In this document: positions 5,707-53,269 of the stretch, piece after piece
Layout: the number at the start of each line of letters is the position of its first letter
Position numbering within the stretch: position 1 is the first letter of the stretch
IMG/VR virus record: IMGVR_UViG_3300045988_084596
Span: 1-57,929 of that record
Direction: 5' to 3' (one strand)
Length of the DNA: 57,929 nucleotides
Source: a virus
Notes under the pieces: model-generated
The model's database searches: none
Told to the model about the DNA's origin: nothing
What the model saw: the letters and a program-made list of their open reading frames with translations, nothing else
Translations under genes and position numbers: made by a program

Positions 5707-5732
5707 CAGTTGGCATTATCTCCTACTCCTCC

Positions 5733-32745: not shown

Positions 32746-33435
32746 TTAACCTACACGCTGTACTTTTACACCAGGTTGAAGATCTGGCATAGTATACACT
32801 TTTACTACTGCAAAGATAGGATCTAAATCTCCACCTTTAGCAGAAGTTTCAGTATCTTTAGTTAAATATCCATCAGTATCAATCTTTAGACGATCGCCTA
32901 CTGCAAGTTCTCCGGCATTAGCCTTAATGGTATTAGTAGTCCAAATATCACCAATGCTAATCTTAATTACGCGAGGTACCATTTTAGTTCCTTCTGGCAT
33001 CAATGCAGGATAAGTAAATGTCTCCATATTTTTCTTATATGCTACATCACTACCTTCGCGTACAGCTTCTCCGGTATAATCACTTATTGTAGCAAGTGTA
33101 GAAACTGTTTGTCCAATTGGACTATATACACGAGCATTATAATTATCCTTAATCATAGCAAAATCAGCGTCAGTTTCGCGATCTCTATAAATCTTTACTT
33201 CATTAAATACCATCATCCAAGCGCCAGAAGTAGCTTCCGTACTAAAATCGCATACGCCTTTTGCATAATCATACTTTACAAATTGACCGTTCTCAAGAAT
33301 CTCAATAGTGCTAGCTGCGGGAAGCTGAGCATATACTTGACCATTTCTTGGAGCGGAAAGATGGTTTGGCTCCACTTGACCATATCCATACTGGACAAAA
33401 GTGGCATTACCTAATCTTTTAGAACTCTTAGCCAT
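32746..33435 (-). CDS. capsid decoration or second capsid-associated protein (229 aa), TAG-free
   Basis: Sits between the scaffold and major capsid genes. Confidence 0.4.
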   Translation of the reverse strand: MAKSSKRLGNATFVQYGYGQVEPNHLSAPRNGQVYAQLPAASTIEILENGQFVKYDYAKGVCDFSTEATSGAWMMVFNEVKIYRDRETDADFAMIKDNYNARVYSPIGQTVSTLATISDYTGEAVREGSDVAYKKNMETFTYPALMPEGTKMVPRVIKISIGDIWTTNTIKANAGELAVGDRLKIDTDGYLTKDTETSAKGGDLDPIFAVVKVYTMPDLQPGVKVQRVG

Positions 33436-40745: not shown

Positions 40746-40774
40746 TTGATTAATTTATTTAAAAATGATATAAT
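40746..40774 (+). promoter_or_regulatory. divergent sigma70-type promoter for the FolD operon
   Basis: TTGATT-aatttatttaaaaatga(17)-TATAAT with an extended TG. Confidence 0.45.
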
Positions 40775-40811: not shown

Positions 40812-41144
40812 ATGTTCTTTGACGAACCATATTTAGATTTACCGGAAAAAGCATAGTATTATTTTAATATCTTAATAATCAGTATTGCTATATCTCCATA
40901 GTATGCTTAGGAAATCTTCCAAAATAAAGCAATAAGTTTATGGGATATTTAGGGAGTTAATGATCCTAGACCTATTGCTATTCATATATATACTTCTTAC
41001 CATATTAATAAAGATTTTGATTATGAAGTATAGTGTATTCCTCACTAGGTATTAGAAGTTAATGAAAATGAAATATCTTTCTATGAAATGATTGATTACG
41101 ATACTAGTGATCCTTGGAGGCTTGATCCAGATGCAATAGATTAA
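40812..41144 (+). CDS. hypothetical protein (110 aa), 7 TAG codons
   Basis: RBS ATAGGAGA before ATG at 40812. Open to TAA 41142-41144 only if TAG is read. Confidence 0.3.
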
Positions 41145-41916
41145 TATAAAAGAATATTTTCAACAATAGGTAAACAAATTGCGGGAGATTAGTGGTAATG
41201 TTCCATCACTCATGATTATCGACGCAACAGCCTAGGATCCCGCAAATCAAATTTATATTCGTAATAAAATAAAAGACTTTAATGCTCTTGGTTGGGAAGC
41301 AGAAGTGTTTAGAGCGAATAGTTCAGTAGAGTTAAGATTACTCTTAGGCCATGCGAAAGACTGGGATGCGGTAATAGTTCAAATGCCAGTAGCAAATGGA
41401 ATTGATTTCAATTATAGTCAAATACCTATCTCTAAAGATGCGGATGGTTTAAATCCTATGAGCAATATTACTCCAGCAACAGTAAGAGGAATTATAGACT
41501 ATTTGGATGAATGTGGTTTTAACTACGAAGGTAAATCTGCTGTTGTTTTGGGAAGAAGCGACATTGTAGGAAAGCCAATGGCTAAAGCTCTACTAGATAG
41601 AAATATGACCGTATCAGTATGTCATAGCAAAACAGATATAAATACAAAACTCTATTTAACAAGGCAAGCAGATTTAATTGTCTCTGCGGTAGGAAAATTT
41701 AGCTTAACAAGAGAAGCCTGTCCTAACGCTATTGTTATAGATGTTGGTATTCGCAGAAATGAAGCAGGAATTACTCTTGGAGACTTTGTAGAAATTGATG
41801 AAATTGCAAAAAGAAATAATGTATGGTCAACTCCTGTCCCCGGAGGAGTAGGTCTATTAACAAGATTGGGGTTGATGAAAAATTGTTTATAGTTAGCGAA
41901 ACAGGCGCAAAGATAA
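41131..41916 (+). CDS. folD: bifunctional methylenetetrahydrofolate dehydrogenase/cyclohydrolase (FolD), 4 in-frame TAG codons
   Basis: Aligns residue by residue to E. coli and B. subtilis FolD. DPANQIYIRNKIK matches NPASQIYVASKRK, VIVQMPVANGIDF matches LVQLPLPAGID, SKDADGLNP matches DKDVDGFHP, GRSDIVGKPMA matches GASNIVGRPM, VIDVGINRNE matches VIDVGINRLE, TPVPGGVGLLT matches TPVPGGVGPMT. The homology continues across TAG codons at 41137, 41167, 41233 and 41890; true stop is TAA at 41914-41916. Confidence 0.75.
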
Positions 41917-42269
41917 TGAAATTTTCGGGAGATTTTGACAAATATGCTGAAGAAGTTCTTCATATTAACAATCCCTTTCGAAAATTTTATCATACACAAA
42001 GTTCTTCAGTATTTAAAACTAACACCGATGGTATCATAACAATAGATATGGAAGAATCTCGAAAAATATATGAAGAAACAAAAGTAAATAGAGAAGAATG
42101 GATTAAATTAAGAGATAGATATGTCGCAGAAAGAATACTGCGGGAACTTGGATATGAAGTTCTATTAACCTCGTCTTATTTTGAATACTATCCTGATGCT
42201 ATTCCTTGTGAAGGAGCGTCAGGGCAATGCACAATAGACTGTAGAATGAATGGGTGTAAATATGAGTAA
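41917..42269 (+). CDS. hypothetical protein (117 aa)
   Basis: ATG abuts the FolD stop; TAA stop. Confidence 0.4.
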
Positions 42270-42450
42270 AATGTGTCCTTGTATTGATTATTGTTATAAT
42301 AGATTCGGTCGGTAGTACACACCAGACTGCGACAATACTTGCGATTATGCAATTAAAGTTAAAGAAAATAAAATGCTTAAAGAATATTTAAAGAGATTAG
42401 CGGCGGAAACAAATAGTTTACACACTTTATTTGAAGATTGGGATAATTAA
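42262..42450 (+). CDS. small Cys-rich protein (62 aa), one TAG
   Basis: MSKMCPCIDYCYNRFGR(Q)YTPDCDNTCDY...; TAA stop. Confidence 0.25.
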
Positions 42451-42494
42451 ATTATCCACTTCTGCCCAACCGCACGGAAGAAAGGAAACTGCAA

Positions 42495-43262
42495 ATGAAA
42501 CGAGAAGAGCTCAAACAACACGCGCAATCGCATTACGCAGACATTAAAGTGAGACTCAAGGAAGATACAGATCGCGCAATTATAAACTCTGAAATTTTTG
42601 GCCCCAATCTTCCTTTTCCGCTAAAACCGCAAGAAACCTACCATAATACCTTTTATCTTAAAGACCAAGATAGCGTATCCTGTCTATTTGGTTTAACCGA
42701 TCGGAGCAAGACCGCAATCTTAAATTATGCAAGCTATAAACATCCAGGTGGTTACTTCCTTGGAGGCAGCTCTGCACAAGAAGAGGCATTGTGTCACGAA
42801 AGCAACCTTTATCCTATTCTTCTTGCTTTTGATGATACTTATTACGCATGGAATAGACAGAGACTAAATCGAGCCCTATATCTTGATAGAGCTATCTATA
42901 CTCCTGATGTAGTCTTTGAAAAAGACAATGGTAGAAAATTAGCTGATGTAATTACTTGTGCTTCTCCTAATTATAGAACAGCACATACTTATCAGCAAGT
43001 TCCTCTTTCTCTAAACAATAGGATAATGGAAGAGAGAATTAATTTTATGTATCGGATTGCCGAGGCTAAGGGAGTGGAAAATTTAATCGCGGGAGCCTGG
43101 GGCTGTGGTGTTTTTATGCAAGATCCATCAACGGTCGCCACCTTGCTCGTAAGCGCAGCCCGCAATTATAATATTCCAAATATTTATTTTGCAATTCCAG
43201 ACCGCAATTCCCGCAATTTTAGAATTTTCTTGGAGGTTTTGGAAAAATGTTCAAGCAATTAA
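42495..43262 (+). CDS. bacterial-type poly(ADP-ribose) glycohydrolase-like macrodomain protein (DUF2263/TIGR02452 family)
   Basis: RBS GGAAGAAAGGAAAC. Signature ILNYASYKHPGGYFLGGSSAQEEALCHESNLY matches the PARG catalytic GGG-X6-8-QEE motif (T. curvata PARG LNFASA..PGGGFL.G..AQEE.LCR.S.LY). TAG-free; TAA stop. Confidence 0.75.
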   Translation: MKREELKQHAQSHYADIKVRLKEDTDRAIINSEIFGPNLPFPLKPQETYHNTFYLKDQDSVSCLFGLTDRSKTAILNYASYKHPGGYFLGGSSAQEEALCHESNLYPILLAFDDTYYAWNRQRLNRALYLDRAIYTPDVVFEKDNGRKLADVITCASPNYRTAHTYQQVPLSLNNRIMEERINFMYRIAEAKGVENLIAGAWGCGVFMQDPSTVATLLVSAARNYNIPNIYFAIPDRNSRNFRIFLEVLEKCSSN

Positions 43263-43684
43263 TTATCGCAAGACGAGATTTAAATATGTCTCCAGGGAAA
43301 CTTGCCGCACAAGTTTCCCATGCTTCTATTGCTTTTCTTTTGGAAAAGTTATATTGGGGAAGTAAAGAAGTTGTTAAAGAAAGAGACGGTCTTATGTATC
43401 ATATAGGAATAAGCCTCGATAGAGACTTATTCCATAACTGGATAGCGGAAGCGGAGACCAAAGTAGTTTGTAGAGCGAAGAATAAGAATGATTTGCTAAA
43501 AGCTGTTGCAATGGCTAAAGAATTAGGATGGGAAGAGAATAAAGACTACTGGCTTATTTATGATGCTTGTAGGACGGAGTTAGAGCGTGAAGGCCCGGAA
43601 GGGACTTTGACGTGTATTGGATTTAGGCCAATGGAGGCGGAAGAAATTGATAAAATTGGGAAGAAGTATCAGCTTTATAATTAA
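43247..43684 (+). CDS. peptidyl-tRNA hydrolase, PTH2 family
   Basis: N-terminus MFKQLIIARRDLNMSPGKLAAQVSHASIAF matches the PTH2 signature (human PTRH2 [25 protein letters not shown]). Overlaps the PARG-like gene by 16 nt; TAG-free. Confidence 0.75.
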   Translation: MFKQLIIARRDLNMSPGKLAAQVSHASIAFLLEKLYWGSKEVVKERDGLMYHIGISLDRDLFHNWIAEAETKVVCRAKNKNDLLKAVAMAKELGWEENKDYWLIYDACRTELEREGPEGTLTCIGFRPMEAEEIDKIGKKYQLYN

Positions 43685-43889
43685 CATAATATTAATCGTA
43701 TTGTTGTTAACTGCTTGCGGAAAGGAGAACGATCGTTATCCAAGGCTAGAGTATATTCCTACAATGTGGAGATCTGATGCGACTAATATTAAACTAGAGG
43801 ATGGATATATCTTAAAAGGATATGAAATGATAGAAACTGAGGATGGATATAATTTGATTTTTAATTTTGAAGCAACCGACGATGGATAA
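43617..43889 (+). CDS. small lipoprotein (90 aa), candidate superinfection-exclusion-type protein
   Basis: Signal peptide RRKKLIKLGRSISFIINIILIVLLLTAC with lipobox LLTAC. Overlaps the Pth2 3' end in another frame, so the start is uncertain. Confidence 0.4.
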   Translation: MDLGQWRRKKLIKLGRSISFIINIILIVLLLTACGKENDRYPRLEYIPTMWRSDATNIKLEDGYILKGYEMIETEDGYNLIFNFEATDDG

Positions 43890-44310
43890 AGTATTAGTAT
43901 GGTTTGACGGTAAGCATTATTATAATATATGCGCAGTCTGTGGAGAATTATATCCAATTTACAAAGTAGAAGATCATATTATATATAATTTAAAGAAGAA
44001 GTGTAAATGCGGAGAGAAGAAGTGAGTTCTTCTCTCTTTTTCGTTATTGAGATTGAAAAGTTGATTTAGATTTTGAAATGGCGTGGCAGAACGATTTCAC
44101 CAAAAAATTTCCAGTTTTTCCCAAAATACACGCCCCTCTTTCACATGGTAAAGTATTGAAGTGTAGTTGGCCTCTTTCGCTCGCTAAAGTACGAAAGCAA
44201 GAAAGCACGCCCCTAAAGGAATACGCGCGCGTAAAGGGTTTGTGCAAACTGCACAACAAGATGTTATTTATTTTGTGCAAAAGAGAGAGAAAGAAATTTC
44301 AAAAAAACTA

Positions 44311-44339
44311 TTGACAAGTGAGCGTTTTGGTGGTAAACT
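44311..44339 (+). promoter_or_regulatory. sigma70-type promoter (first of two tandem)
   Basis: TTGACA-agtgagcgttttggtgg(17)-TAAACT with a preceding A-tract. Perfect inverted repeat ACTGGAC tt GTCCAGT sits at the expected +1. Confidence 0.45.
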
Positions 44340-44405
44340 GGACTTGTCCAGTAGGACAGAGACAAAAGCACGGCACTTTGAAAATTAAAAAATTTCAAAA
44401 AAGGT

Positions 44406-44434
44406 ATTGACAAACTGCTAAAGGTTTGATACAA
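44406..44434 (+). promoter_or_regulatory. sigma70-type promoter (second tandem)
   Basis: TTGACA-aactgctaaaggtttga(17)-TACAAT with extended TG; A-tract upstream. Confidence 0.5.
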
Positions 44435-44488
44435 TACAGACAGAACAAAAGAGAACCACACCACAAAAAGAAAGGGAGTCAAAAGAGT

Positions 44489-44863
44489 ATGAAAAAGATT
44501 GATTTTACCAATGAAGATCGAGCCATTATTATGGAGTATATGGCGGCTAAGATGGCTAAGTCTGCGGCGGAGGCGGCGGAGAAAGCAGCTAAGGCTAAGG
44601 CTAAAGAGCTATTCTCCAGATTAGGTAAGGCTTTTAAGGCTACGGACAAAACAAGTTATCTATATGGCACGGTACAAATGCAGGGTAAGGCGAAAGCGGT
44701 GGTATATAAAGAAACTACCGCAAAAGGAACGGTTGACTGGAAAGCCTATGCTATGGCATTAGGTGGAACGGAAGCCGAAGCAGAGCAATTCCGCAGACCT
44801 TCCGATATTCGTACCTCTTTTGATTGGGCGACAAAGACCCAAGAAGAAGAAATTAGAGGATAA
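44489..44863 (+). CDS. hypothetical Ala/Lys-rich protein (124 aa)
   Basis: RBS AAAGGGAGTCAAAAGAGT before ATG at 44489. The track ORF starts further upstream at 44426 in the same frame. Confidence 0.45.
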   Translation: MKKIDFTNEDRAIIMEYMAAKMAKSAAEAAEKAAKAKAKELFSRLGKAFKATDKTSYLYGTVQMQGKAKAVVYKETTAKGTVDWKAYAMALGGTEAEAEQFRRPSDIRTSFDWATKTQEEEIRG

Positions 44864-45130
44864 CAGTTTATAAACCCTGCCTTGCAAAACACAAGGCAAG
44901 GCAGGGTTATAATAATTAAAAGAAAGGGGCATACTATATGTATCAGTTACAAGTTTTAGCCAATGAGAAAATGCGCTATTATGAACCATCCACCCTTTCA
45001 ATGGCAAGATGGAAGGTCAGTCACGAGATAGTCAATCCTAATCATTGGATTGTGGATTTATCCAGTGGAGAAATCGTAGATTAAAAAGAAGCTGACCTAA
45101 CGGCTATACGGGGAGAAAGGATAAAAGACT

Positions 45131-45433
45131 ATGAACAATTATATTAAGTGGTTCGTTGGGCCTACTTTTAGAAAGCGTGAATTTATTAAACTTTTGCGGT
45201 ATAAGATGAATGTGCGTTCCGCAGAGGTAGAGGACGGCATCATCTTAGACCTGGATGCTTTTAATGCCATGCGAGTGGCCTATATGCCACACTGGGCTTA
45301 TATCAATAGAAAGTTTATCAATAGCAATCTGCATACCAGAATTGCAAGCGAAGACGAATATAAGGTTGCTATGATCGGAGATACAATCGGTACTGAATGG
45401 GTTAAAGAACAGGAGGCAAAGAAATGGAAATGA
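45131..45433 (+). CDS. hypothetical protein (100 aa)
   Basis: RBS GGGGAGAAAGG; TGA stop. Confidence 0.4.
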   Translation: MNNYIKWFVGPTFRKREFIKLLRYKMNVRSAEVEDGIILDLDAFNAMRVAYMPHWAYINRKFINSNLHTRIASEDEYKVAMIGDTIGTEWVKEQEAKKWK

Positions 45434-45592
45434 GAATTATTAAGCGGATAGGAGGCGGCATTTGTGCCGCTCTCCTACTCTGGACAGTTCTTAGTTGGGC
45501 TGATATAGTGGCGGATAACTGTGAGCCAAACCCACAGCACAGCGAATATAATATGTTCGTTCTCATGACTAAATAATAGGAGGAAAAAGAAA

Positions 45593-45826
45593 ATGTATAG
45601 AGGGACTTATATCGACGCCATGGGCCGCAAGCGCAGAGAGATGGGATATTTCAGTCTTAATAAGCCCACTCTGAATAAACTCCATATACCAGTAATTGTC
45701 CAAGCGAGAGATAAGACAAGTGCGGCGAATAAAATCAATAGGAAATATAAGTTGCGTATAAGTCCCAGTAATCTGCGGGAGGTGCCGATGGGCACAGGCT
45801 ATCTCATGGAAACCATGGAGCTGTAA
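45593..45826 (+). CDS. hypothetical basic protein (77 aa)
   Basis: RBS AGGAGGAAAAAGAAA before ATG; TAA stop followed by a double terminator. Confidence 0.4.
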   Translation: MYRGTYIDAMGRKRREMGYFSLNKPTLNKLHIPVIVQARDKTSAANKINRKYKLRISPSNLREVPMGTGYLMETMEL

Positions 45827-45840
45827 AGGAATAATACTTG

Positions 45841-45875
45841 ACTGGCAATCTACACAAAGATTGCCAGTCATTTTT
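45841..45875 (+). terminator. intrinsic terminator (first of a tandem pair)
   Basis: ACTGGCAATC tacacaaa GATTGCCAGT then CATTTTT. Confidence 0.55.
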
Positions 45876-45898
45876 ATGCACTTTTCCATATTGACTTT

Positions 45899-45937
45899 TC
45901 GCCGGGCCGCCAGCGTGCGCCGCGGCCCGAATTTTTA
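45899..45937 (+). terminator. conserved GC-rich hairpin terminator (family member 1 of 6)
   Basis: CGCCGGGCCGCcagcgtgcGCCGCGGCCCGAATTTTTAT. Confidence 0.55.
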
Positions 45938-46011
45938 TTTATTCGGCAATTTCAACAATTATATGACCGAAAGTCTGTGCAATTCGACGAAAGTTTTTCT
46001 CCCGAAATTAC

Positions 46012-46040
46012 TTGACATTCCTTTTGCCATGTGTTATTAT
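46012..46040 (+). promoter_or_regulatory. consensus sigma70-type promoter
   Basis: TTGACA-ttccttttgccatgtgt(17)-TATTAT, preceded by TCTCCCGAAA. Confidence 0.55.
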
Positions 46041-46092
46041 ATACTTGTCCAAAGGGACAGGCCACAAAAAGAATTTGAAAGGAAGTAAAAAA

Positions 46093-46332
46093 ATGACTTT
46101 AGATATGGTTGCTTGGTTACTTTCTCCGCTTGCAGAAGATACTATGTTCTTTGACGGGGAGGGATTCGAAATTATCAATAAGAATACCCAAGCTCATTAC
46201 CACGAATTACCTGATGGTAGAATAACTCTGGGAGGAGACGTAATCGAGGTATCTAAGGAATGGGTTCTGGGACTTCAGGTAACCGGCATTGAGGCAAGAG
46301 ATAACAATTTAATCATTTATGTAGATGGTTAA
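46093..46332 (+). CDS. hypothetical protein (79 aa)
   Basis: RBS GAAAGGAAGTAAAAAA before ATG at 46093. Confidence 0.4.
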   Translation: MTLDMVAWLLSPLAEDTMFFDGEGFEIINKNTQAHYHELPDGRITLGGDVIEVSKEWVLGLQVTGIEARDNNLIIYVDG

Positions 46333-46394
46333 GAAAACTTGCGGGAGTGGAGGCCATAAATCTCCACTCCCCATGATAAAAAGGAGGAATAAAT

Positions 46395-46610
46395 ATGATT
46401 GCTGTTATTAAATTTGAAAGTGTAGAAAAATCTGCGGAGTTTGGAGACACAATTTGTAATATGGCTGGTTGGTGTTTGAATCATCCTCTTAATTCCAATG
46501 TTACCGGCTGTGTTCGTACTCTTGATTTTAATACCGGCGACAAACAAGATAGAGCCTTATATAATTATCTGCTAAAAATTAGAGCTTTCGAGGAGGTGGA
46601 ACTAAAGTGA
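46395..46610 (+). CDS. hypothetical protein (71 aa)
   Basis: RBS AAAAGGAGGAATAAAT before ATG. Confidence 0.4.
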   Translation: MIAVIKFESVEKSAEFGDTICNMAGWCLNHPLNSNVTGCVRTLDFNTGDKQDRALYNYLLKIRAFEEVELK

Positions 46611-47016
46611 GTATTGAGCGTTTACCGCATACATATCCTATCGGTTCCACTGTTTGGACAAATAAGGGATATGGCACAGTTCTACTTCACATTGGTAAAT
46701 ACCATCTGGTTTGGTTACAGAGATTAGGGCTGGCGTAATGCCGGCCCTATTGATTTTTTCAAAAAAATATATTATAATAATTATAGAAAAATAAAGAAAG
46801 GAGTTTTTCTAATGACCTTAGAAGTGCTGAAAGCACTCGCGGTTATTTTGGAGTTCTGTTTGAACTAGGATTCTTGTAAAAATTGCCCTATGTCTCAGTT
46901 CTGCCAGAAAATGCCTTGCGAGCGGTAAATGTTCCTTCCGATTGTTCTAAATCGGCGATTCCCGTGATGGAGTCGTTTTTCGCACGAGCCTAGGTCACTA
47001 GAATTTATTTATCAAA

Positions 47017-47250
47017 ATGCAAGAAACTACTTTCTCTCGCAAATTAGATTCAAGTGGTAGAATTATGATTCCGATTCGCTTGCGTGAACAAATGGGACTT
47101 ACTTCCGGTTAGGAATACTATTTTACTACTATGGTAAAAGATGGTAGAAAATATATCTGTATTGACTGCGGATCGGTTGATTCCTCGCTTGAAGAAGCTA
47201 TGAAAATTATCCAAGCAAACGGATTAAAGATTGTTGAAAATGCCGATTGA
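47017..47250 (+). CDS. AbrB/SpoVT-like swapped-hairpin DNA-binding protein (77 aa) with one in-frame TAG at 47110
   Basis: KLDSSGRIMIPIRLREQMGLTSG(TAG)EYYFTTMVKDGRKYICI resembles the AbrB N-terminal domain (VDELGRVVIPIELRR.LGI...). TGA stop, then a double terminator. Confidence 0.55.
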
Positions 47251-47293
47251 CTTCTCAAAAGAAAGGGAGTTGTTGGTATGCAGAAATTAATGA

Positions 47294-47324
47294 CCTCCTG
47301 AAATTCAGGAGGTTCTTTTTTTAT
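47294..47324 (+). terminator. intrinsic terminator
   Basis: CCTCCTGAAATTCAGGAGG then TTCTTTTTTTAT. Confidence 0.6.
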
Positions 47325-47329
47325 TCGAT

Positions 47330-47368
47330 CGCCCGGCCGTGCACTATAGGCGCGGCCGGAATTTTTTA
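47330..47368 (+). terminator. conserved GC-rich hairpin terminator (family member 2)
   Basis: GCCCGGCCGtgcactataggCGCGGCCGGAATTTTTTAT. Confidence 0.55.
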
Positions 47369-47369
47369 T

Positions 47370-47423
47370 CAAGAGGCAATTTGCACAATTTTCCAGCCGA
47401 AATTTTGTGCAGTTTGCCTCTTG
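47370..47423 (+). promoter_or_regulatory. conserved dyad element (CAAGAGGCAA-TTGCACAATTTT...AATTTTGTGCA-TTGCCTCTTG)
   Basis: Near-perfect 22-bp inverted repeat around a 9-nt centre, located between the terminator pair and the promoter. Paralogous copies at 48263-48310, 49842-49919, 51636-51670 and 45946-45982. Confidence 0.5.
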
Positions 47424-47449
47424 TTTTCTATCCCGAAATCTGATATACT
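47421..47449 (+). promoter_or_regulatory. sigma70-type promoter
   Basis: TTGTTT-17-TATACT with extended TG, preceded by TATCCCGAAA. Confidence 0.45.
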
Positions 47450-47481
47450 TTAATCAACCTAAAGAAAGGAAGTAAATCAAA

Positions 47482-47946
47482 ATGAAAAAGATGCTCTGCT
47501 TTGATATGGATGGAACAATCGCTGACCTGTACGGCGTGGATGATTGGTTAAAAGATTTAATGAATGAAAATCCCTATCCATATACAGTCGCCAAACCTCT
47601 TTGCGATATAGAAGAATTGAATACCGTTCTTAATAAGCTCATTGAGCAGGGCTGGGAAATTCGGGTTATCAGTTGGCTTGCAAAAGACAGTTCTAACTCA
47701 TATAAAACTGCTGTTCGTGACGCAAAGCGCACTTGGCTTGCAAAATACAACTTCCCCGCACATAAAGTCCACCTTGTGGAATATGGCACAACAAAAGCAA
47801 ATTGTGTGCGGAAACACTTTGAGCCGGGAATTAGCAATTTCATTTTGATTGATGATAATAAAAGTGTGCGGGATGGCTGGCATTTAGGGGAAACAATCGA
47901 GCCACATGAAGATTTACCTACGGCCTTATGGCGACTGGTAGAGTAA
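47482..47946 (+). CDS. HAD-superfamily 5'(3')-deoxyribonucleotidase-like protein (154 aa)
   Basis: Motif I MLCFDMDGTIADLYG (DxDGT) is typical of NT5C-type dNMP nucleotidases. RBS GAAAGGAAGTAAATCAAA. Confidence 0.65.
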   Translation: MKKMLCFDMDGTIADLYGVDDWLKDLMNENPYPYTVAKPLCDIEELNTVLNKLIEQGWEIRVISWLAKDSSNSYKTAVRDAKRTWLAKYNFPAHKVHLVEYGTTKANCVRKHFEPGISNFILIDDNKSVRDGWHLGETIEPHEDLPTALWRLVE

Positions 47947-47986
47947 TCCACCAGTCAATCTTAAAATAAGAAAGGAAGTTTTGTAA

Positions 47987-48175
47987 ATGAAGATTAGAAA
48001 GGTTAATAGGCTTATCCTCAGCGAGGAAGAGCGACAAGTATTGAAAAATGCGTCCATTCTCATTGGTCAAATTGATCAGGTTATGGCCGACAATGAAATT
48101 GATGACGATATTTCGCTTGAAGATTTAAGCTATTGGCTTGACGAGATTATCAATAAAGAATATCTTGGATATTAA
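47987..48175 (+). CDS. hypothetical acidic protein (62 aa)
   Basis: RBS AAGAAAGGAAGTTTTGTAA before ATG. Confidence 0.4.
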   Translation: MKIRKVNRLILSEEERQVLKNASILIGQIDQVMADNEIDDDISLEDLSYWLDEIINKEYLGY

Positions 48176-48199
48176 GAGGGCTTCGGCCCTCTTATTTTT
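48175..48199 (+). terminator. intrinsic terminator (UUCG-type tetraloop hairpin)
   Basis: AGAGGGCTTCGGCCCTCT then TATTTTT. Confidence 0.55.
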
Positions 48200-48216
48200 A
48201 CTCTTTAATATCGTTT

Positions 48217-48262
48217 GGGCGGCTCGCTGGCGCACGCGGCGAGCCGAGTTTTTGTTTTTGTC
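48217..48262 (+). terminator. conserved GC-rich hairpin terminator (family member 3)
   Basis: GGGCGGCTCGCtggcgcacgcGGCGAGCCGAGTTTTTGTTTTTG. Confidence 0.55.
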
Positions 48263-48307
48263 GATGTTGCACAATTTTGGCTTGCAAATTTTGTGCAATT
48301 TGCCATC

Positions 48308-48336
48308 TTGTAATTATCCCGAAAGTATGGTATTAT
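48308..48336 (+). promoter_or_regulatory. sigma70-type promoter
   Basis: TTGTAA-17-TATTAT with extended TG, preceded by TATCCCGAAAG. Confidence 0.45.
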
Positions 48337-48501
48337 ATATTTGTCAAGAGGGGAAGGCCAAGAAATCAAGAGGTCGCGAACTCTTAGAAAGTAAAGGAAG
48401 TAAATTTATATTGTGTCGTAAGTCGAGTGAACGCCGTTAGAATAGGCCGTTCTAATGCCCAGTAGCTTGCAGTAAATCGCAATAAAAATTTCCTTTTCCT
48501 C

Positions 48502-48530
48502 TTGACATCAAGCATGATATGTGCTATAAT
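48502..48530 (+). promoter_or_regulatory. consensus sigma70-type promoter
   Basis: TTGACA-tcaagcatgatatgtgc(17)-TATAAT. Confidence 0.55.
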
Positions 48531-48562
48531 AAACTCAACAAGAGGAAAGGAAGTCAAAGATT

Positions 48563-49354
48563 ATGATTGATAAGCGTAGACACTATGTTTTGGTGGTTGA
48601 TACTGAAACTGCTAACACACTGACTGAAACTGACGAAAACGGCAAAGCCCGCATGGATATGAGTTGCGTTCTTGTCTATGATTGCGGATGGGCGGTAGTG
48701 GATACCAAGGGCAATATTTATGAAACTGCCAGTTTTGTAAATAGGGACATTTTCAACGATGAGCGGGATCTCATGCGGACTGCTTATTATAATTGGAAAA
48801 TTCCCCGCTATATTGAGGAACTGCGGGCCGGCACTCGTAAAATGGCTACCACTTATGAAATCCGCCAAGCTATGCTCAATACCATTGAGCGATACGGCAT
48901 TAAGGAAGTTGCGGCTTATAATGCCAGATTTGACGATAATGCCTTGAGAGTTACACAACGATGGGTCACTTGCTCCAAGTTCCGCTACTGGTTCCCGTTT
49001 GATAGTGTGGAAATCTGGGACATTATGAAGATGACACAGGATGTTATCTGCAATATGCCCACTTATAAGAAATTCTGTCAGGAAAACGGATATGTCCAGG
49101 CCAATGGCGTTCCTCGTAAGACTGCGGAAATCGTGTGGCGGTTTATTTCTGGCAATACCGATTTTGAAGAAAGTCATACGGGGCTTGAGGATGTTCTCAT
49201 TGAGGCGGAAATCATGTGGTATTGTATGCGTCAGCATAAGCCCATGAGAAAGGCCCTGTATGAGAATAAGAGAGAGTTTCCACCTATGACAGATTTTCAG
49301 CGTCAACTTTCCGCAAGTATGCGTTCAATTCCAACTATCCGGGTAGGGGCTTAA
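48563..49354 (+). CDS. DEDDh-family 3'-5' exonuclease (DnaQ-like), 263 aa
   Basis: Exo I motif VVDTETAN, Exo II motif AYNARFD, Exo III motif HTGLEDVLIEAE (H...D). RBS AGAGGAAAGGAAGTCAAAG. Confidence 0.6.
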   Translation: MIDKRRHYVLVVDTETANTLTETDENGKARMDMSCVLVYDCGWAVVDTKGNIYETASFVNRDIFNDERDLMRTAYYNWKIPRYIEELRAGTRKMATTYEIRQAMLNTIERYGIKEVAAYNARFDDNALRVTQRWVTCSKFRYWFPFDSVEIWDIMKMTQDVICNMPTYKKFCQENGYVQANGVPRKTAEIVWRFISGNTDFEESHTGLEDVLIEAEIMWYCMRQHKPMRKALYENKREFPPMTDFQRQLSASMRSIPTIRVGA

Positions 49355-49381
49355 AGCCCCGCCCGACAGAAAGGAAATAAT

Positions 49382-49573
49382 ATGTCTCAAGTTCATTGTA
49401 TGCGGTGGAGTTGCCCGCATTATGCCGAGGAAGGCATGGACCCAGAACAAATCTATGATACTATCTGCCCAGATTTTGACACGGAATCACTTTGTTGCTC
49501 TTTGGGTGAGCCATGGTTCGACTGTGACGAATATCAGAGACAATATGGAGTTGATGATTTCGAGGAGGAATAA
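49382..49573 (+). CDS. small acidic Cys-rich protein (63 aa)
   Basis: RBS AGAAAGGAAATAAT before ATG. Confidence 0.35.
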   Translation: MSQVHCMRWSCPHYAEEGMDPEQIYDTICPDFDTESLCCSLGEPWFDCDEYQRQYGVDDFEEE

Positions 49574-49574
49574 A

Positions 49575-49757
49575 ATGGTAACAAAAACTGTATATACCTC
49601 TTCTCTGTGCGCAGATGCCGTTTATATGGCAATTCAAATTATTGAGCGTATGGGATGGTGTCATGATGATATTGACGAAGATGGAAATATGCTGGTAAAT
49701 GTTCCCATTGAGGATGAACACCTGTTTGATTTTCTGGATAACTGTATTTTCTGTTAA
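49575..49757 (+). CDS. small hypothetical protein (60 aa)
   Basis: RBS GAGGAGGAATAAA before ATG at 49575. The track's longer 49422 ORF shares the 3' part. Confidence 0.3.
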   Translation: MVTKTVYTSSLCADAVYMAIQIIERMGWCHDDIDEDGNMLVNVPIEDEHLFDFLDNCIFC

Positions 49758-49786
49758 GAAGGGCTTCGGCCCTTCTTTTTTTATAC
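49758..49786 (+). terminator. intrinsic terminator (UUCG tetraloop hairpin)
   Basis: GAAGGGCTTCGGCCCTTC then TTTTTTTAT. Confidence 0.55.
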
Positions 49787-49792
49787 AAAATT

Positions 49793-49832
49793 TGAGCGGG
49801 TCGCGCAGGAACGGCGCGACCCGAGTTTTTCT
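49793..49832 (+). terminator. conserved GC-rich hairpin terminator (family member 4)
   Basis: GAGCGGGTCGCGCaggaacgGCGCGACCCGAGTTTTTC. Confidence 0.55.
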
Positions 49833-50027
49833 TTGTAAATGTTGCACAAAAATTTCAGCTCCGTTTTGTGTAAAATTCTGCACAAAAACTTTCTCCCAAA
49901 ATTCAGATTTTTTGTGCAATTTGACGCTTGCAATCTGCTTTTGCTTGTGGTAAAATACATTCAGAAAGTGAGAGAGACGAACGGCAGACAGCGACAGCGA
50001 ATTTCTCAAAAATCTTTCAAGAATCTC

Positions 50028-50056
50028 TTGACAAGCCTTTGAAGATGTGCTATAAT
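50028..50056 (+). promoter_or_regulatory. consensus sigma70-type promoter P1 of a triple tandem array
   Basis: TTGACA-agcctttgaagatgtgc(17)-TATAAT. Confidence 0.55.
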
Positions 50057-50105
50057 AAGTACAGAAAACAAGGCAAGGAACCTTGAAAAGTGAATAAAAA
50101 AGGGC

Positions 50106-50134
50106 TTGACAAACTCTCCAAAGTGTGTTACACT
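50106..50134 (+). promoter_or_regulatory. sigma70-type promoter P2
   Basis: TTGACA-aactctccaaagtgtgt(17)-TACACT. Confidence 0.45.
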
Positions 50135-50200
50135 ATAAGGGAGGTTGAGAGGGCAAACAAGTAAAGAGCAAAAGTTCTTGAAAAAAGTTTGAAAAACCTC

Positions 50201-50229
50201 TTGACAAACTCCCGATAGTGTGGTACAAT
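50201..50229 (+). promoter_or_regulatory. sigma70-type promoter P3
   Basis: TTGACA-aactcccgatagtgtgg(17)-TACAAT with extended TG. Confidence 0.5.
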
Positions 50230-50278
50230 ATAATCAAAGGACAAGGACAGTCCTAAAAACCAGAAAGGATGTATTACC

Positions 50279-50680
50279 ATGAGCGAGAAGAAAATCCGTA
50301 TCACTAAGGCCCAGCGTTTCGAGGACATTAAGGCCCTCTTGGCTGGTGATGAGGTGAAGCATGGCACAACCATGGAGATTGCCATGACCGTCATTGACCA
50401 TGAGCTGGAGCTGTTGCGGAAGAAGAATAGCTCCGGCGGTGACAAGAAGCTGACCTCGACCCAGCAGGAGAACGAAAACTTTAAGGAGCAGATTATGGAG
50501 TATCTGGCTGGTCTGGACGCCGATACCGATGGCGTGACCTGCACGGAAATTTTTAAGGCTATTCCTGATCTGACGGCCTATTCTAACCAGAAGGTCGCCG
50601 CTCTTGTGCGGCAGTTGAAACTCGATGGTCGAGTAGTCTGCACGGAGAAGAAGGGCAAGTCCCTCTTTAAGATGGCGTAA
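50279..50680 (+). CDS. hypothetical protein (133 aa), compositionally atypical (GC-rich codons), possible winged-helix C-terminus
   Basis: RBS AGAAAGGATGTATTACC. Codon usage (CTG, GAG, AAG, GCC) differs visibly from the rest of the window. Followed by hairpin GGGCGGGGtgaaaatCCCCGCCC. Confidence 0.45.
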   Translation: MSEKKIRITKAQRFEDIKALLAGDEVKHGTTMEIAMTVIDHELELLRKKNSSGGDKKLTSTQQENENFKEQIMEYLAGLDADTDGVTCTEIFKAIPDLTAYSNQKVAALVRQLKLDGRVVCTEKKGKSLFKMA

Positions 50681-50818
50681 CCCCGTATAGGGCGGGGTGA
50701 AAATCCCCGCCCTAACTTATAATATGGGGGTGATATTATATCCAGTCGCATTAGTGACGCTGAACGGATTGCAAGGTATAAAGCCCTGCAATTAACGCCG
50801 GAAGAGGAGGCAGATTTA

Positions 50819-51136
50819 TTGGCCTATGATAAGGCGGTAGAGGCTGATAAAAAGACTGAATACGATTTATCGCCAGAAAAGGCGAAAATCGCTCAAAAGT
50901 TTGCCCATGCTGGAACGCGCAAACAGCCAACCGCATATAAGTTCACTACACGGCAACGCAAGCCAAACGCCACGAAAGGCGGTATAATTGCGGAATTGGC
51001 AGAGTTTTTGGAAAAAAACAGTCAATTCTCTATCGCTGACTTGTCTATTACTAACAAGGAAAGACAGATTGCGTTTTCTATTGGTGGGGATAGTTTCGAG
51101 TTGACGCTTGTGCAAAAGCGTAAGCCGAAGAAATAA
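50819..51136 (+). CDS. hypothetical basic protein (about 105 aa); start uncertain
   Basis: TTG at 50819 from the track. The frame is open back to 50723 with no ATG. Followed by hairpin CGGGGTAGGgtcggCCTACCCCG. Confidence 0.3.
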   Translation: MAYDKAVEADKKTEYDLSPEKAKIAQKFAHAGTRKQPTAYKFTTRQRKPNATKGGIIAELAEFLEKNSQFSIADLSITNKERQIAFSIGGDSFELTLVQKRKPKK

Positions 51137-51192
51137 CGGGGTAGGGTCGGCCTACCCCGGCCCTACCAGAAAAGAGGCAAGTTATAGTTAGT

Positions 51193-51543
51193 TTGCAGAC
51201 AAGGGGAAAAGAGTTCCTATATGTCGGACATTATATCGACAAAAAGGGGCGCTATATTCTCAAGATTGGTACGACAAATGACCTTGAACGCAGAGCCGCA
51301 GAGCATACGAGAAATTATAAGCGGGCGCCAGATTACACCATGCCGGAAGATGGTTCCTTTATCTATGATTGGCATATCAAACTTTCCAAGTATAATACCC
51401 TACGATACGAGGATGTAAACCGGACTTTGTGGCAGAATATGGGAATTGGTCGTTTTATCAGAAATGACCGTTTCTTGTGCGACACTCCCCCGGCCATGGT
51501 TACGGTGGTTATTCGCAAGGCATATCCAATAATTCTCAACTAA
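51193..51543 (+). CDS. GIY-YIG-like nuclease domain protein (116 aa)
   Basis: FLYVGHYIDKKGRYILKIGTTNDLERRAAEHTRNY resembles the GIY...YIG...R...E catalytic core. Confidence 0.45.
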   Translation: MQTRGKEFLYVGHYIDKKGRYILKIGTTNDLERRAAEHTRNYKRAPDYTMPEDGSFIYDWHIKLSKYNTLRYEDVNRTLWQNMGIGRFIRNDRFLCDTPPAMVTVVIRKAYPIILN

Positions 51544-51548
51544 AGAAA

Positions 51549-51577
51549 AATCTCCCCTTATGGGGAGATTTTTTTTA
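51549..51577 (+). terminator. intrinsic terminator
   Basis: ATCTCCCCttatGGGGAGAT then TTTTTTTT. Confidence 0.6.
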
Positions 51578-51587
51578 CGCAAAATTT

Positions 51588-51628
51588 TGGGCGGACCGCT
51601 TGCGTGCGCCGCGGTCCGATTTTTTCTT
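51588..51628 (+). terminator. conserved GC-rich hairpin terminator (family member 5)
   Basis: GGGCGGACCGCttgcgtgcGCCGCGGTCCGATTTTTTC. Confidence 0.55.
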
Positions 51629-51679
51629 CTATTGTCATTTTCAACAATTTTGAATTGAAAATCTGTGCAACTTGACAGC

Positions 51680-51708
51680 TTGACTTTCTCCCAAAAATGT
51701 GGTATCAT
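51680..51708 (+). promoter_or_regulatory. sigma70-type promoter
   Basis: TTGACT-17-TATCAT with extended TG, preceded by TTTCTCCCAAAAA. Confidence 0.45.
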
Positions 51709-51734
51709 TTAACCATGGAAAGGAGATAAAAGAA

Positions 51735-52187
51735 ATGGAAAGTCTGAAACAATTTCGTGTTAATTTTCAAGTTACCTTTTGGTGTGAAGGTCGCAAGGGT
51801 ATTTTCTCTAAGAAGCCTTATAAATTTACGGTATCATTTTGTGATGATATTATACTTTCTACCTTTTTAATCAATGCTCGAACCGAAAAAGAAGCGGTTA
51901 AAACGGGGAAAAACTATGTTGAAAATATAGTTCAATGTTGGGTTGAACAGTCAGAAGAAAATCAAGCCACAGGCGAATATATGATTTTAACTGGAAATAT
52001 GGCTGATACAAAAAGATTTGAGTGGTCGCCTAAAATCTACGCCATTACCGGGTATGAAATTAAATTTATTTCTTGTGAAATGGTTTGCGACTGGGCAAAA
52101 GAAAGGGTCGAGAGAGCGGCAAGAGAACTGACTATGGAGCAATTTAAGCAAGTTTTTAGTGAAATTCCGGCTGAGATTTTTCATTAA
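51735..52187 (+). CDS. hypothetical protein (150 aa)
   Basis: RBS AAAGGAGATAAAAGAA before ATG at 51735. Confidence 0.4.
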   Translation: MESLKQFRVNFQVTFWCEGRKGIFSKKPYKFTVSFCDDIILSTFLINARTEKEAVKTGKNYVENIVQCWVEQSEENQATGEYMILTGNMADTKRFEWSPKIYAITGYEIKFISCEMVCDWAKERVERAARELTMEQFKQVFSEIPAEIFH

Positions 52188-52204
52188 AGAAAGGAGATTT
52201 TTAG

Positions 52205-52456
52205 ATGGTTGATATTGATTTCAACAAACTGAATGACGAGGAGTTGCAATGGTTGAGTGCTACAGCCTATAAAGAAGTGGCACTTAGAAAACAAAAAGCG
52301 CGAGAGAAAGATTGGAATAGTCTAATCGAAGAGATAGACGAGTATTGTAAAAAGTATGGAGAAATAACTATCGTTGAATATGGAGATAAATTTGTTCTTG
52401 AATTTCCGATACGGTGTAACTGTATAGGAGAAATCAATTTAGAAAACGAGGATTAA
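52205..52456 (+). CDS. hypothetical protein (83 aa)
   Basis: RBS AAAGGAGATTTTTAG before ATG. Confidence 0.4.
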   Translation: MVDIDFNKLNDEELQWLSATAYKEVALRKQKAREKDWNSLIEEIDEYCKKYGEITIVEYGDKFVLEFPIRCNCIGEINLENED

Positions 52457-52458
52457 GA

Positions 52459-52486
52459 AAAGAGAGGCTTCGGCCTCTCTTTTATT
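52459..52486 (+). terminator. intrinsic terminator (UUCG tetraloop hairpin)
   Basis: AAGAGAGGCTTCGGCCTCTCTT then TTATTT. Confidence 0.5.
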
Positions 52487-52502
52487 TCATATTTCCTAAA
52501 CT

Positions 52503-52541
52503 CGACGGGCCGATCGCGGGCGACTCGGCCCGAGTTTCCCC
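52503..52541 (+). repeat. GC-rich hairpin family member 6 (no T-run)
   Basis: CGACGGGCCGatcgcgggcgactCGGCCCGAG has the same architecture as the five terminator hairpins but ends in TTTCCCC. Confidence 0.4.
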
Positions 52542-53269
52542 GATCGGACCATAGCGCAAAATTTTCATAGCAACTTGGCCATAACGCAACTTCATAGCGA
52601 TTTTCCCAAAATTCATAACGCCCTCTTCCAAACACCGATCGGCCCTACTTTACTTCTTCCTTTATCTAGTTCCGATCGGTTCAGCAATATTGGCTCTCTC
52701 GTCCAATTTTTTATAATAAAAATCTTAAAATTGTCAAGTATTCACAGTACCAAAACTTTCTAAAATACAACTAGCAATAGCAAAGATATAGCTATGAAAA
52801 ACAAATACGACCAGAGATTTCTTTCGCGGAGCCGATCGGTTTAACACGATTTTATGATAAAAATAGCTTAAAAATAGAGATTTTAGCTAGATAAACCGAT
52901 CGGCCCGCAATCTTTTACCTTTTGTTATCGCAAAATATAACAAAAAACCTCTAAAATCTTGCAAAAATGCGCGTTTTTCTAACAAATTTACTTAAAAATA
53001 AGTAAAAAATGCCTCGTTTTTCTCAAAATTTCTTGATATTCACAGAATTAAAACCATTAAAGATACAGCAAACAATAGCAAAGATGTTGCTAACTATTTG
53101 AAAAGGAAAAATCTTTTCCGCGGGATTCCATTAAAGCGATCTTTTTATCTAGACCCGATCGGTTCGACAATATATAAAAAATATAATATAATATATACAT
53201 AAGATAAAGAAAAGGAGGATTTTAGTTTAAGAAGCATCATAACGCTTTTTCTAACTAAAAGAACTTATT

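Follow-up and report, generated by a model that had tools for sequence, protein, structure and literature searches.

Overlapping genes for a PARG-like macrodomain and a PTH2-family peptidyl-tRNA hydrolase in a TAG-recoded phage

The stretch of viral DNA considered here, positions 1 to 57,929 of the IMG/VR record IMGVR_UViG_3300045988_084596 and called the window throughout, carries on its plus strand two overlapping genes, the first encoding a macrodomain that resembles the bacterial-type PARGs and the second a PTH2-family peptidyl-tRNA hydrolase (Pth2). The pair had been picked out in an initial annotation made from the letters of the sequence, which suggested counter-defence as a plausible role, and the two reading frames with their 16-nt overlap are indeed present as described there (Table 1). 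Each of the two families is already known in phages; what is new is their overlapping pairing, which is specific to one lineage and is not obligate.

Two enzyme families and a 16-nt overlap

As judged by profile searches, the first product belongs to the bacterial-type PARGs (DUF2263/TIGR02452), of which the enzymes of Thermomonospora curvata (3SIG), Deinococcus radiodurans (DRB0099, 5ZDA-G) and Streptomyces coelicolor (SCO0909) are the closest known examples. It matches PF10021, the microbial-type PARG catalytic domain, with an E value of 6.7e-26 and 91.9 bits (cut-off 23.5), and TIGR02452 over residues 17-245 with an E value of 4.1e-51 and 174.1 bits (cut-off 50), and phmmer relates it to the PARGs of D. 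radiodurans (5zd*, E 1e-24) and T. curvata (3sig, E 1e-21); a PHROGs search returned no family for it. The peptides quoted in the initial annotation are present, HPGGYFLGGSSAQEE lying inside LNYASYKHPGG...QEEALCHESNLY, although the context given there as NFAS and GGG reads NYAS and PGGY. The PARG signature GGG-X6-8-QEE is found as P84-G85-G86-Y-FLGGSSA-Q95-E96-E97, and in an alignment of 17 homologs with 36-71% identity the residues P84, G85, G86, G91, Q95, E96 and E97 show no variation, whereas the motif's third Gly is Tyr in the window protein and variable across the phage clade. The same alignment leaves G200, A201, G203, C204, G205, V206 and F207 of the diphosphate-binding loop unchanged.

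The AlphaFold2 model of this protein is of high confidence (pLDDT 89.8, pTM 0.89), with low values just at residues 203-206, and shows a macrodomain fold with the PARG-specific N-terminal helical extension. Foldseek aligns it to 3sig, 3sih and 3sij (the last being the E115A mutant of T. curvata PARG) with an E value of 3e-17 and TM scores of 0.82-0.84, while other macrodomains reach TM scores of only about 0.45-0.55. Thus, the likeness to bacterial-type PARGs, predicted from sequence and model, extends to the profile, the Q-E-E signature, the GAWGCGVF loop, the fold and a length of about 250 residues, whereas the window protein differs from them in its identity of only 25-30%, in the Tyr at the third Gly, in being phage-encoded and in overlapping a Pth2 gene. 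With family, residues and fold intact, the protein is apparently a catalytically competent PARG.

The second product matches PF01981 over its full length (1-115/115; E 1.2e-22, 80.8 bits, cut-off 23) and phrog_1866, a phage family annotated as 'unknown function', with an E value of 2.9e-21; the N-terminal peptide quoted in the initial annotation, RRDLNMSPGKLAAQVSHAS, lies within it. The NCBIfam equivalog models for archaeal Pth2 score it below their cut-offs (82.2 bits against 126 for NF003314, 66.2 against 82 for TIGR00283), so that it is a divergent member of the PTH2 family and not an archaeal equivalog, and its clade is composed of phage and Clostridia sequences rather than archaeal ones. 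When compared with the archaeal and eukaryotic enzymes (Sulfolobus solfataricus 1XTY, P. horikoshii 1WN2, T. acidophilum 1RLK and human PTRH2/Bit1 1Q7S), it shares with them the PF01981 domain and the catalytic Lys, Asp and Thr, its K18, D106 and T110 aligning to K18, D86 and T90 of S. solfataricus Pth2 (1XTY); D106 and T110 are invariant among homologs and K18 nearly so. The catalytic roles of the Lys and the Asp, K18 and D86 in the S. solfataricus enzyme, were reportedly assigned by Fromant and colleagues in 2005. The AlphaFold2 model (pLDDT 88.2) has the alpha/beta fold of this family, and Foldseek relates it to 1rlk, 3erj, 1wn2, 1q7s and 1xty with E values of 3e-9 to 1e-7 and target-normalised TM scores of 0.79-0.84. 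In contrast to archaeal Pth2, it carries a 22-residue beta-hairpin insertion after helix 1, modelled as an extra hairpin at residues 39-53 where the inserts of relatives reach about 75 residues, as well as a 4-residue insert before the GT motif. On the strength of family, residues and predicted fold, this enzyme too is apparently competent. The initial annotation had named two outcomes that would speak against its assignments, namely profiles placing the proteins outside the PARG and PTH2 families and the loss of catalytic residues, and had asked for structure prediction as a check; both outcomes were tested and neither occurred, and the confident models match solved PARG and Pth2 structures.

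The overlap of the two genes measures the same 16 nt in two relatives (L001 and L008) and is shorter in two others (L011 and L177). Since a GGAGG Shine-Dalgarno sequence lies inside the PARG coding region, 10 nt upstream of the Pth2 ATG, translational coupling is plausible, and the sequence of this arrangement suggests that the two genes are probably coupled.

Table 1. Position and main attributes of the features at the PARG-Pth2 locus of the window
Feature	Position	Strand	Remarks
FolD-like gene (methylene-tetrahydrofolate dehydrogenase/cyclohydrolase)	41131..41916	+	PF02882 E 4.9e-38, PF00763 E 3.7e-09; 4 in-frame TAG
Small Cys-rich gene directly 5' of PARG	42250..42450	+	1 in-frame TAG
Bacterial-type PARG-like macrodomain gene	42495..43262	+	255 aa, ATG start; no in-frame TAG
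Q95-E96-E97 codons, PARG catalytic signature	42777..42785	+	invariant in the 17-sequence alignment; aligns to AQEE of D. radiodurans PARG
G200-A-W-G-C-G-V-F207 codons, macrodomain diphosphate-binding loop	43092..43115	+	identical to GAWGCGVF of D. radiodurans PARG
GGAGG Shine-Dalgarno of Pth2	43232..43236	+	10 nt before the ATG, within the PARG coding region
16-nt overlap of PARG 3' end and Pth2 start	43247..43262	+	read from the sequence
PTH2-family peptidyl-tRNA hydrolase gene	43247..43684	+	145 aa, ATG start; no in-frame TAG
Lipoprotein-like small gene, lipobox LLTAC	43617..43889	+	accompanies Pth2 in both gene orders; no Pfam match
First terminator-like hairpin 3' of the pair	44011..44037	+	11-bp stem then T run
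Two copies of repeated sigma-70-like early promoter	44291..44435 (44291-44339, 44387-44435)	+	TTGACA-17-TACAAT (11/12) and TTGACA-17-TAAACT; 3' of the pair

A TAG-free pair in a recoded genome

The window derives from a phage, for its recognisable products include virion, portal and terminase-like proteins together with a sigma factor and a reverse transcriptase of the retroelement type. Open reading frames of 100 aa or more cover 42% of the window, and 94% of it when TAG is read as sense, and the residue found in orthologs at TAG positions is Gln in 111 cases, the next most frequent residue accounting for 29. In the late genes TAG makes up 54% of the Gln codons, and a single gene of 2841 aa (15618-24143) contains 108 TAG. 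The phage is therefore TAG-to-Gln recoded. A tRNA scan of the window found zero tRNAs, so that the suppressor tRNA must be located elsewhere in the genome, of which 58 kb are visible in the window; the contigs of relatives measure 139-149 kb, and the whole phage about 145 kb. An Rfam scan of the window gave no match at the gathering score, and the DNA between 41 and 46 kb gave no similarity match to GenBank phages. Strong Shine-Dalgarno sites and TTGACA/TATAAT promoters suggest a host among the Firmicutes, a near-identical PARG/Pth2 pair lies on a 148,971-bp contig (CALWOP010000177.1) binned with an Oscillospiraceae metagenome-assembled genome (MAG), and the closest cellular Pth2 homologs, at 50% identity, are those of cultured Faecalibacterium genomes; the host is thus probably a gut Firmicutes bacterium of Oscillospiraceae type.

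The initial annotation had described both genes as free of TAG and driven by an early promoter set. The first statement stands: the pair has 0 TAG in 400 codons, of which 12 encode Gln, an outcome with P ~1e-4 under the usage of either the late or the upstream genes. Orthologs of both genes in the same phage family have no internal TAG or TGA, and among all loci analysed a single TAG occurs in just two Pth2 copies, which belong to another lineage (L165 and L166). The idea that truncated database homologs reflect in-frame TAG in relatives finds no support in the loci analysed, the family orthologs being free of internal TAG and TGA. When TAG counts are compared between the minus strand at 2385-40754 (late genes) and the plus strand at 41916-53713, the plus-strand block shows 0 TAG among 50 Gln codons. 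From the TAG-free orthologs and the low P value we infer that the pair is expressed independently of TAG suppression. Early timing may be supposed, but TAG absence is no proof of it, because five late structural genes (24427-24966, 26534-27925, 31076-31609, 31674-32726 and 32746-33435) are TAG-free as well.

The early promoter set could not be confirmed as the driver of the pair. The clear copies of the repeated promoter, with the pattern TTGACAAACT...TG.TACAAT and an A-rich tract upstream, lie 3' of both genes, as do the further copies of the repeat families D3 and D7 at 50082-50233, while 5' of the pair only weaker matches are found (40746-40774, 41965-41993 and 42419-42447). No terminator-like site separates the pair from the plus-strand genes upstream, which contain TAG (six in 40812-41144, in addition to those of the FolD-like and Cys-rich genes in Table 1). 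The first terminator-like hairpin downstream is, from its sequence, the probable end of the transcription unit of the pair.

Several other features of the window deserve mention. GC-rich hairpins with a T run form terminator-like cassettes at 45896-45960, 47326-47390, 48213-48277, 49791-49834 and 51585-51649, each followed by a conserved 'CAATTT..CAACAATT' stretch, and these cassettes punctuate the TAG-free plus-strand block. In a Pfam search of ten plus-strand neighbours, FolD alone was recognised. The small Cys-rich protein encoded upstream of PARG has conserved counterparts in L005 and L007 (50% identity, E 1.6e-12), the similarity running through its TAG position, and homologs of the lipoprotein-like gene come after Pth2 in L013 and L093. 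Another small protein (47017-47250, plus strand) has an N-terminus (SGRIMIPIRLREQMGL) resembling the SpoVT/AbrB (MazE-type) DNA-binding fold, and its candidate counterpart in L001 and L168 is a PF04014 MazE_antitoxin gene further along the same plus-strand row. The HAD-like protein at 47482-47946 was considered as a member of the RNA-repair HAD_SAK_2 type and rejected, as it has no Pfam match and an E value of 0.9 to the corresponding L151 protein. Finally, the reverse transcriptase at 24-1241 (plus strand; phrog_1423, E 3.5e-84; 3 in-frame TAG) is probably a component of a diversity-generating retroelement.

Separable genes in a variable slot

A scan of viral contigs with alignments of each family yielded 174 PARG and 106 Pth2 relatives, and the best 80 loci of each were analysed. 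Those with both genes belong to one phage family, which is recognisable by its syntenic markers: genes for a sigma-like protein, a YonG_N protein and a terminase share one strand, and FolD lies on the opposite one. FolD is syntenic in all members and forms the conserved left flank of a variable slot. This slot holds the overlapping PARG-Pth2 arrangement in the window, in L001-L006 and in L177. In L013, L093, L168, L176 and L027, PARG comes after Pth2 with one to two small genes between them, while the slot has Pth2 alone in L094, L095 and L175 and PARG alone, beside an AAA_28 protein and DUF5662, in L171/L172. In L171, a 147-kb contig, PARG (within 4483-6195) overlaps the upstream AAA_28 P-loop protein by 4 nt and is followed by DUF5662, with no Pth2 nearby. 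Among 26 genome-contig loci with a Pth2 relative, mostly from bacterial genomes and MAGs, the pair is found in the phage-like L177 only. In L007 (5001-5713), when compared with L005 (5001-6330), the aligned blocks are at least 95% identical, yet PARG and Pth2 are full of deletions: one of 207 nt takes out the part of PARG that bears the QEE signature, and Pth2 is interrupted by more than ten others, of 9-138 nt. Either the two genes have become pseudogenes together or the assembly of a mixed population has produced an artefact.

All four states of presence and absence within one family, together with the decay in L007, indicate that the two genes are accessory, dispensable and separable. A dedicated two-gene module, or an obligate complex, is therefore not what these phages carry, since some siblings have just one of the two genes, others have them in reverse order, and the two do not co-occur wherever one is present; judged by sequence, the overlap is a trait derived within one lineage. 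Outside this family, Lak megaphages, Bacillus phage G and several huge phages have PARG homologs as well, and Pth2 homologs are found in deposited phages of Enterococcus, Xanthomonas, Stenotrophomonas (jumbo phages in the latter two) and Pseudomonas.

Such a distribution raises the question of whether the adjacency has any functional meaning at all. The two genes might be unrelated acquisitions from hosts that ended up in one insertion hot spot, where they would play independent and possibly metabolic roles. Their independent presence and absence and their swapped order within one phage family are in line with this, as is the identity between sub-lineages of 41-45% for PARG against about 86% for the terminase, which suggests separate acquisition or fast turnover; the slot also houses the unrelated AAA_28 and DUF5662 proteins, and the neighbouring FolD is a metabolic gene. 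However, the overlap with its internal Shine-Dalgarno sequence has been kept from 96% down to 65% PARG identity, Pth2 lies near three ADP-ribose hydrolase folds in independent settings, and L007 lost both genes together. On balance, we regard an accident of adjacency as unlikely, though less so than the other alternatives considered here.

The same distribution bears on the proposal, made in the initial annotation, that Pth2 serves the phage's own code by recycling peptidyl-tRNA that drops off at TAG, where the suppressor tRNA competes with release factor 1, PARG being an unrelated neighbour. The heavy use of TAG in the late genes of this family and the restriction of adjacent PARG/Pth2 pairs to it would fit such a role, as would the PARG homologs of Prevotella Lak phages, which we take to be TAG-recoded. 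Yet close Pth2 homologs are present in standard-code-looking phage loci (L151 and L110) and in Faecalibacterium chromosomes, and distant ones in Enterococcus phages and in jumbo phages of Xanthomonas and Stenotrophomonas, all of which presumably use the standard code; Pth2 is thus not specific to recoding, and the idea of drop-off at TAG is weakened accordingly. Moreover, all family members are TAG-recoded in their late genes, including the sibling L171/L172 that has PARG without a Pth2 at this locus, L007 lost both genes, and the Pth1 of the host should already handle peptidyl-tRNA drop-off. This proposal consequently appears very unlikely.

ADP-ribose and RNA repair around homologs of the pair

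Beside homologs in other phages and in bacteria, the nearest neighbours differ for the most part from one lineage to the next, yet one theme keeps returning. For instance, in L169 (2772-5777; ena:ERZ16268257 scaffold_126) a 722-aa protein that fuses an AAA_33 kinase, a Metallophos domain and RNA_lig_T4_1, a T4 Rnl1-type ligase (E 1.3e-48), is followed after 61 nt by a PARG homolog (44% identity), an arrangement that mirrors the ligase-PARG-kinase operon of D. radiodurans, and in L065 and L069 PARG stands among Metallophos, YqeY and RNA-ligase-like genes. Another example is L151 (2149-9531; IMGVR_UViG_3300029305_005080), where genes for an ADP-ribosylglycohydrolase (ARH, E 9e-38), a HAD_SAK_2 protein (the 'Swiss Army Knife' RNA repair HAD, E 6e-22), Pth2, a YAcAr/SLOG protein and a 739-aa fusion of kinase, metallophosphatase and Rnl1-type RNA ligase follow one another on one strand; by its domain content this row looks like an extended cassette for RNA repair and ADP-ribose metabolism. 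In the 389-aa protein P0086 (19 member sequences), YAcAr (SLOG) is fused to a microbial-type PARG domain in a single chain. Finally, the chromosome of Faecalibacterium prausnitzii UT1 (L195, 5998-9829; NZ_CP170812), a bacterium expected to possess Pth1 already, encodes a Pth2 with 50% identity to the phage protein; Macro (E 4e-33) and ARH (ADP_ribosyl_GH, E 3e-39) genes lie about 1.5 kb away, with DUF5131 between them on the opposite strand. Several species of the genus retain this arrangement, whereas in others it has eroded. Three different ADP-ribose hydrolase folds thus occur in the vicinity of Pth2, and heal-and-seal RNA repair enzymes in that of both families. This wider link of Pth2, ADP-ribose hydrolases and RNA repair genes is a new observation, and a suggestive one.

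Published work bears on the substrates that both enzymes may have. Bacterial-type PARGs are the sole hydrolase class found to reverse the RhsP2-type ADP-ribosylation of RNA 2'-hydroxyls, in which the linkage is C1''-2'OH, the same as in poly-ADP-ribose; their activity extends to the removal of ADP-ribose from 5'-phosphate ends and protects cells against the toxin, and the D. radiodurans PARG lies between a ligase and a kinase/phosphatase in a repair operon (Lu et al. 2025, PMC11833690). The targets put forward in the initial annotation, namely marks laid down by DarT or ParT, are not substrates shown for these enzymes, whose published activities concern RNA 2'-hydroxyls and 5'-phosphate ends. 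Jumbo-phage PTH2 proteins (phrog_1866) have been grouped with RNA repair and ribosome rescue, the proposed role being the release of peptidyl-tRNA from ribosomes that cleaved tRNA has blocked (Iyer et al. 2021, PMC7824862); that paper discusses phage Macro, NADAR and YAcAr domains and mentions PARG 0 times. The reversal of TacT-type aminoacyl-tRNA acetylation, which the initial annotation had offered as a task for Pth2, is documented for the Pth1 of bacteria (PMC9241777) and not for Pth2, and a further paper has Pth1 only as its subject (PMC3488237). In line with that annotation, our literature searches brought up no phage module with both activities; they found no PARG-Pth2 pair, no Pth2 in recoded phages and no PARG cleaving Thoeris signals.

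The reading that we tentatively favour, without calling it probable, is that PARG and Pth2 are two separable accessory enzymes with one theme, that of keeping translation RNAs usable, with PARG stripping ADP-ribose from RNA and Pth2 recycling blocked tRNA. A host ADP-ribosyltransferase, or NAD-dependent RNA damage, would attach ADP-ribose to RNA during infection; PARG would remove it from 2'-hydroxyls or 5'-phosphate ends, cleaving a C1''-2'OH linkage as in poly-ADP-ribose, while the substrate of Pth2 would be peptidyl-tRNA or N-blocked aminoacyl-tRNA, either on stalled ribosomes or released from them, and its hydrolysis would return tRNA to the pool. Both genes sit in the variable accessory slot after FolD, the overlap having been acquired in the lineage of the window.

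A number of observations weigh against this reading. Of the 80 PARG-seeded and 80 Pth2-seeded viral loci, only 7 and 6, respectively, have the partner at a distance of up to 6 kb, all of them from the one phage family, and clustering of neighbours (205 clusters from 224 proteins) revealed no conserved partner across phage lineages. The recurrence of ADP-ribose hydrolases near Pth2 comes without a null model, so that chance may account for it and the proximities are suggestive only. No RNA ligase, polynucleotide kinase or ADP-ribosyltransferase is recognised in the 58-kb window; the repair context is therefore borrowed from other phages, and the ligase and end-healing kinase/phosphatase that would make up an RNA repair system are encoded beside the homologs in L169 and L151, not here. 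Neither protein has a match among the PADLOC defence models at E <= 0.01, we know of no host defence in Oscillospiraceae that ADP-ribosylates RNA, and the TAG-free late structural genes mean that TAG absence does not reveal early timing.

PARG might instead act on a signal, degrading ADP-ribose-derived immune messengers of the Thoeris type (1''-2' or 1''-3' glycocyclic ADP-ribose, gcADPR) by cleavage at their ribose-ribose O-glycosidic bond and so blocking the abortive infection that depends on them, with Pth2 as an unrelated neighbour. The C1''-2'OH ribose-ribose bond cleaved by PARG (PMC11833690) is of the same type as that of 1''-2' gcADPR (PMC10680739). YAcAr (SLOG) is fused to PARG in P0086 and adjoins Pth2 in L151, SLOG domains are linked to ADP-ribose-derived signalling, and phage Macro and NADAR proteins are predicted to degrade such signals (PMC7824862); the TAG-free state of the gene would also fit an action before, or independent of, suppression. 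Nevertheless, in the library searched no report of gcADPR cleavage by an enzyme of PARG type was found, Tad1, Tad2 and Acb2, the anti-Thoeris proteins that the retrieved abstracts name, are sponges, PADLOC gave no Thoeris-related match, and the repeated RNA ligase/kinase context of PARG would be left unexplained. We consider such a signal-degrading role rather improbable.

Another possibility is that PARG serves as an antidote or off-switch for an ADP-ribosyltransferase that the phage itself encodes elsewhere, limiting or timing the ADP-ribosylation that the phage imposes on host targets. Phage T4 encodes the ADP-ribosyltransferases Alt, ModA and ModB, there is room for such a gene in the roughly 145-kb genome beyond the 58 kb visible, and phage ADP-ribosyltransferases, as well as 'toggle' pairs of domains that make and degrade ADP-ribose, are described in large phages (PMC7824862). 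No such transferase, however, was recognised among the window proteins scanned or in about 10 kb around the pair in relatives, and PARG adjoins none in the 27 dereplicated phage lineages examined. We regard a self-directed antidote as very unlikely.

Comparison with known systems places the favoured reading, that of translation RNAs kept usable, next to heal-and-seal RNA repair, as exemplified by T4 Pnkp and Rnl1 and by Pnkp-type kinase-phosphatase-ligase fusions. Homologs of both genes adjoin such fusions (L169 and L151), some phage PARG homologs adjoining RNA ligase and kinase genes as DRB0099 does, and the restoration of damaged translation RNAs would be a shared theme; in contrast, the window has no ligase or kinase, and the pair would remove blocking groups (ADP-ribose, peptidyl) rather than heal and seal breaks. 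The jumbo-phage PTH2 proteins are likewise phage-borne, with a proposed ribosome or tRNA rescue in an RNA-repair setting (PMC7824862), but the present phage, at about 145 kb, is not a jumbo phage, is TAG-recoded and has its Pth2 coupled to a PARG gene. The concept of a phage-encoded ADP-ribose remover that undoes the work of a host ADP-ribosyltransferase is the same as for the orphan phage NADAR-type proteins that counter DarTG1 (PMC11825919) and for the DarG macrodomain, whereas the window protein, a PARG-type macrodomain rather than a NADAR or TARG1-like one, would be expected to act on ribose 2'-OH or phosphate ends and not on thymine or guanine bases in DNA.

A bolder version would hold that Pth2 and ADP-ribose hydrolases are functionally linked, with gut Firmicutes or their mobile elements ADP-ribosylating the tRNA acceptor end or other translation RNAs, and phages and some bacteria answering with a PARG, ARH or Macro hydrolase that takes off the ADP-ribose together with a Pth2 that removes the peptidyl or acyl group of the blocked tRNA, often alongside a kinase-phosphatase-ligase; we put this forward as a conjecture with slender prospects. 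In its most radical form, this Pth2 clade may hydrolyse an ADP-ribose-linked ester and not peptidyl-tRNA.

The pair is small, its catalytic residues are intact and it should be easily expressed, so that these ideas are directly testable. If the adjacency is meaningless, the analysis still annotates a variable slot beside FolD in a widespread family of TAG-recoded gut phages of about 145 kb. If the favoured reading is true, it would offer a first clue to the function of phrog_1866, to which the phage Pth2 clade belongs, and the biochemistry of RhsP2 and PARG published in 2025 for interbacterial toxins would apply to the conflict of phages with their hosts as well. Gut Firmicutes and their large recoded phages would then be actively contending over translation RNAs by means of reversible ADP-ribosylation.

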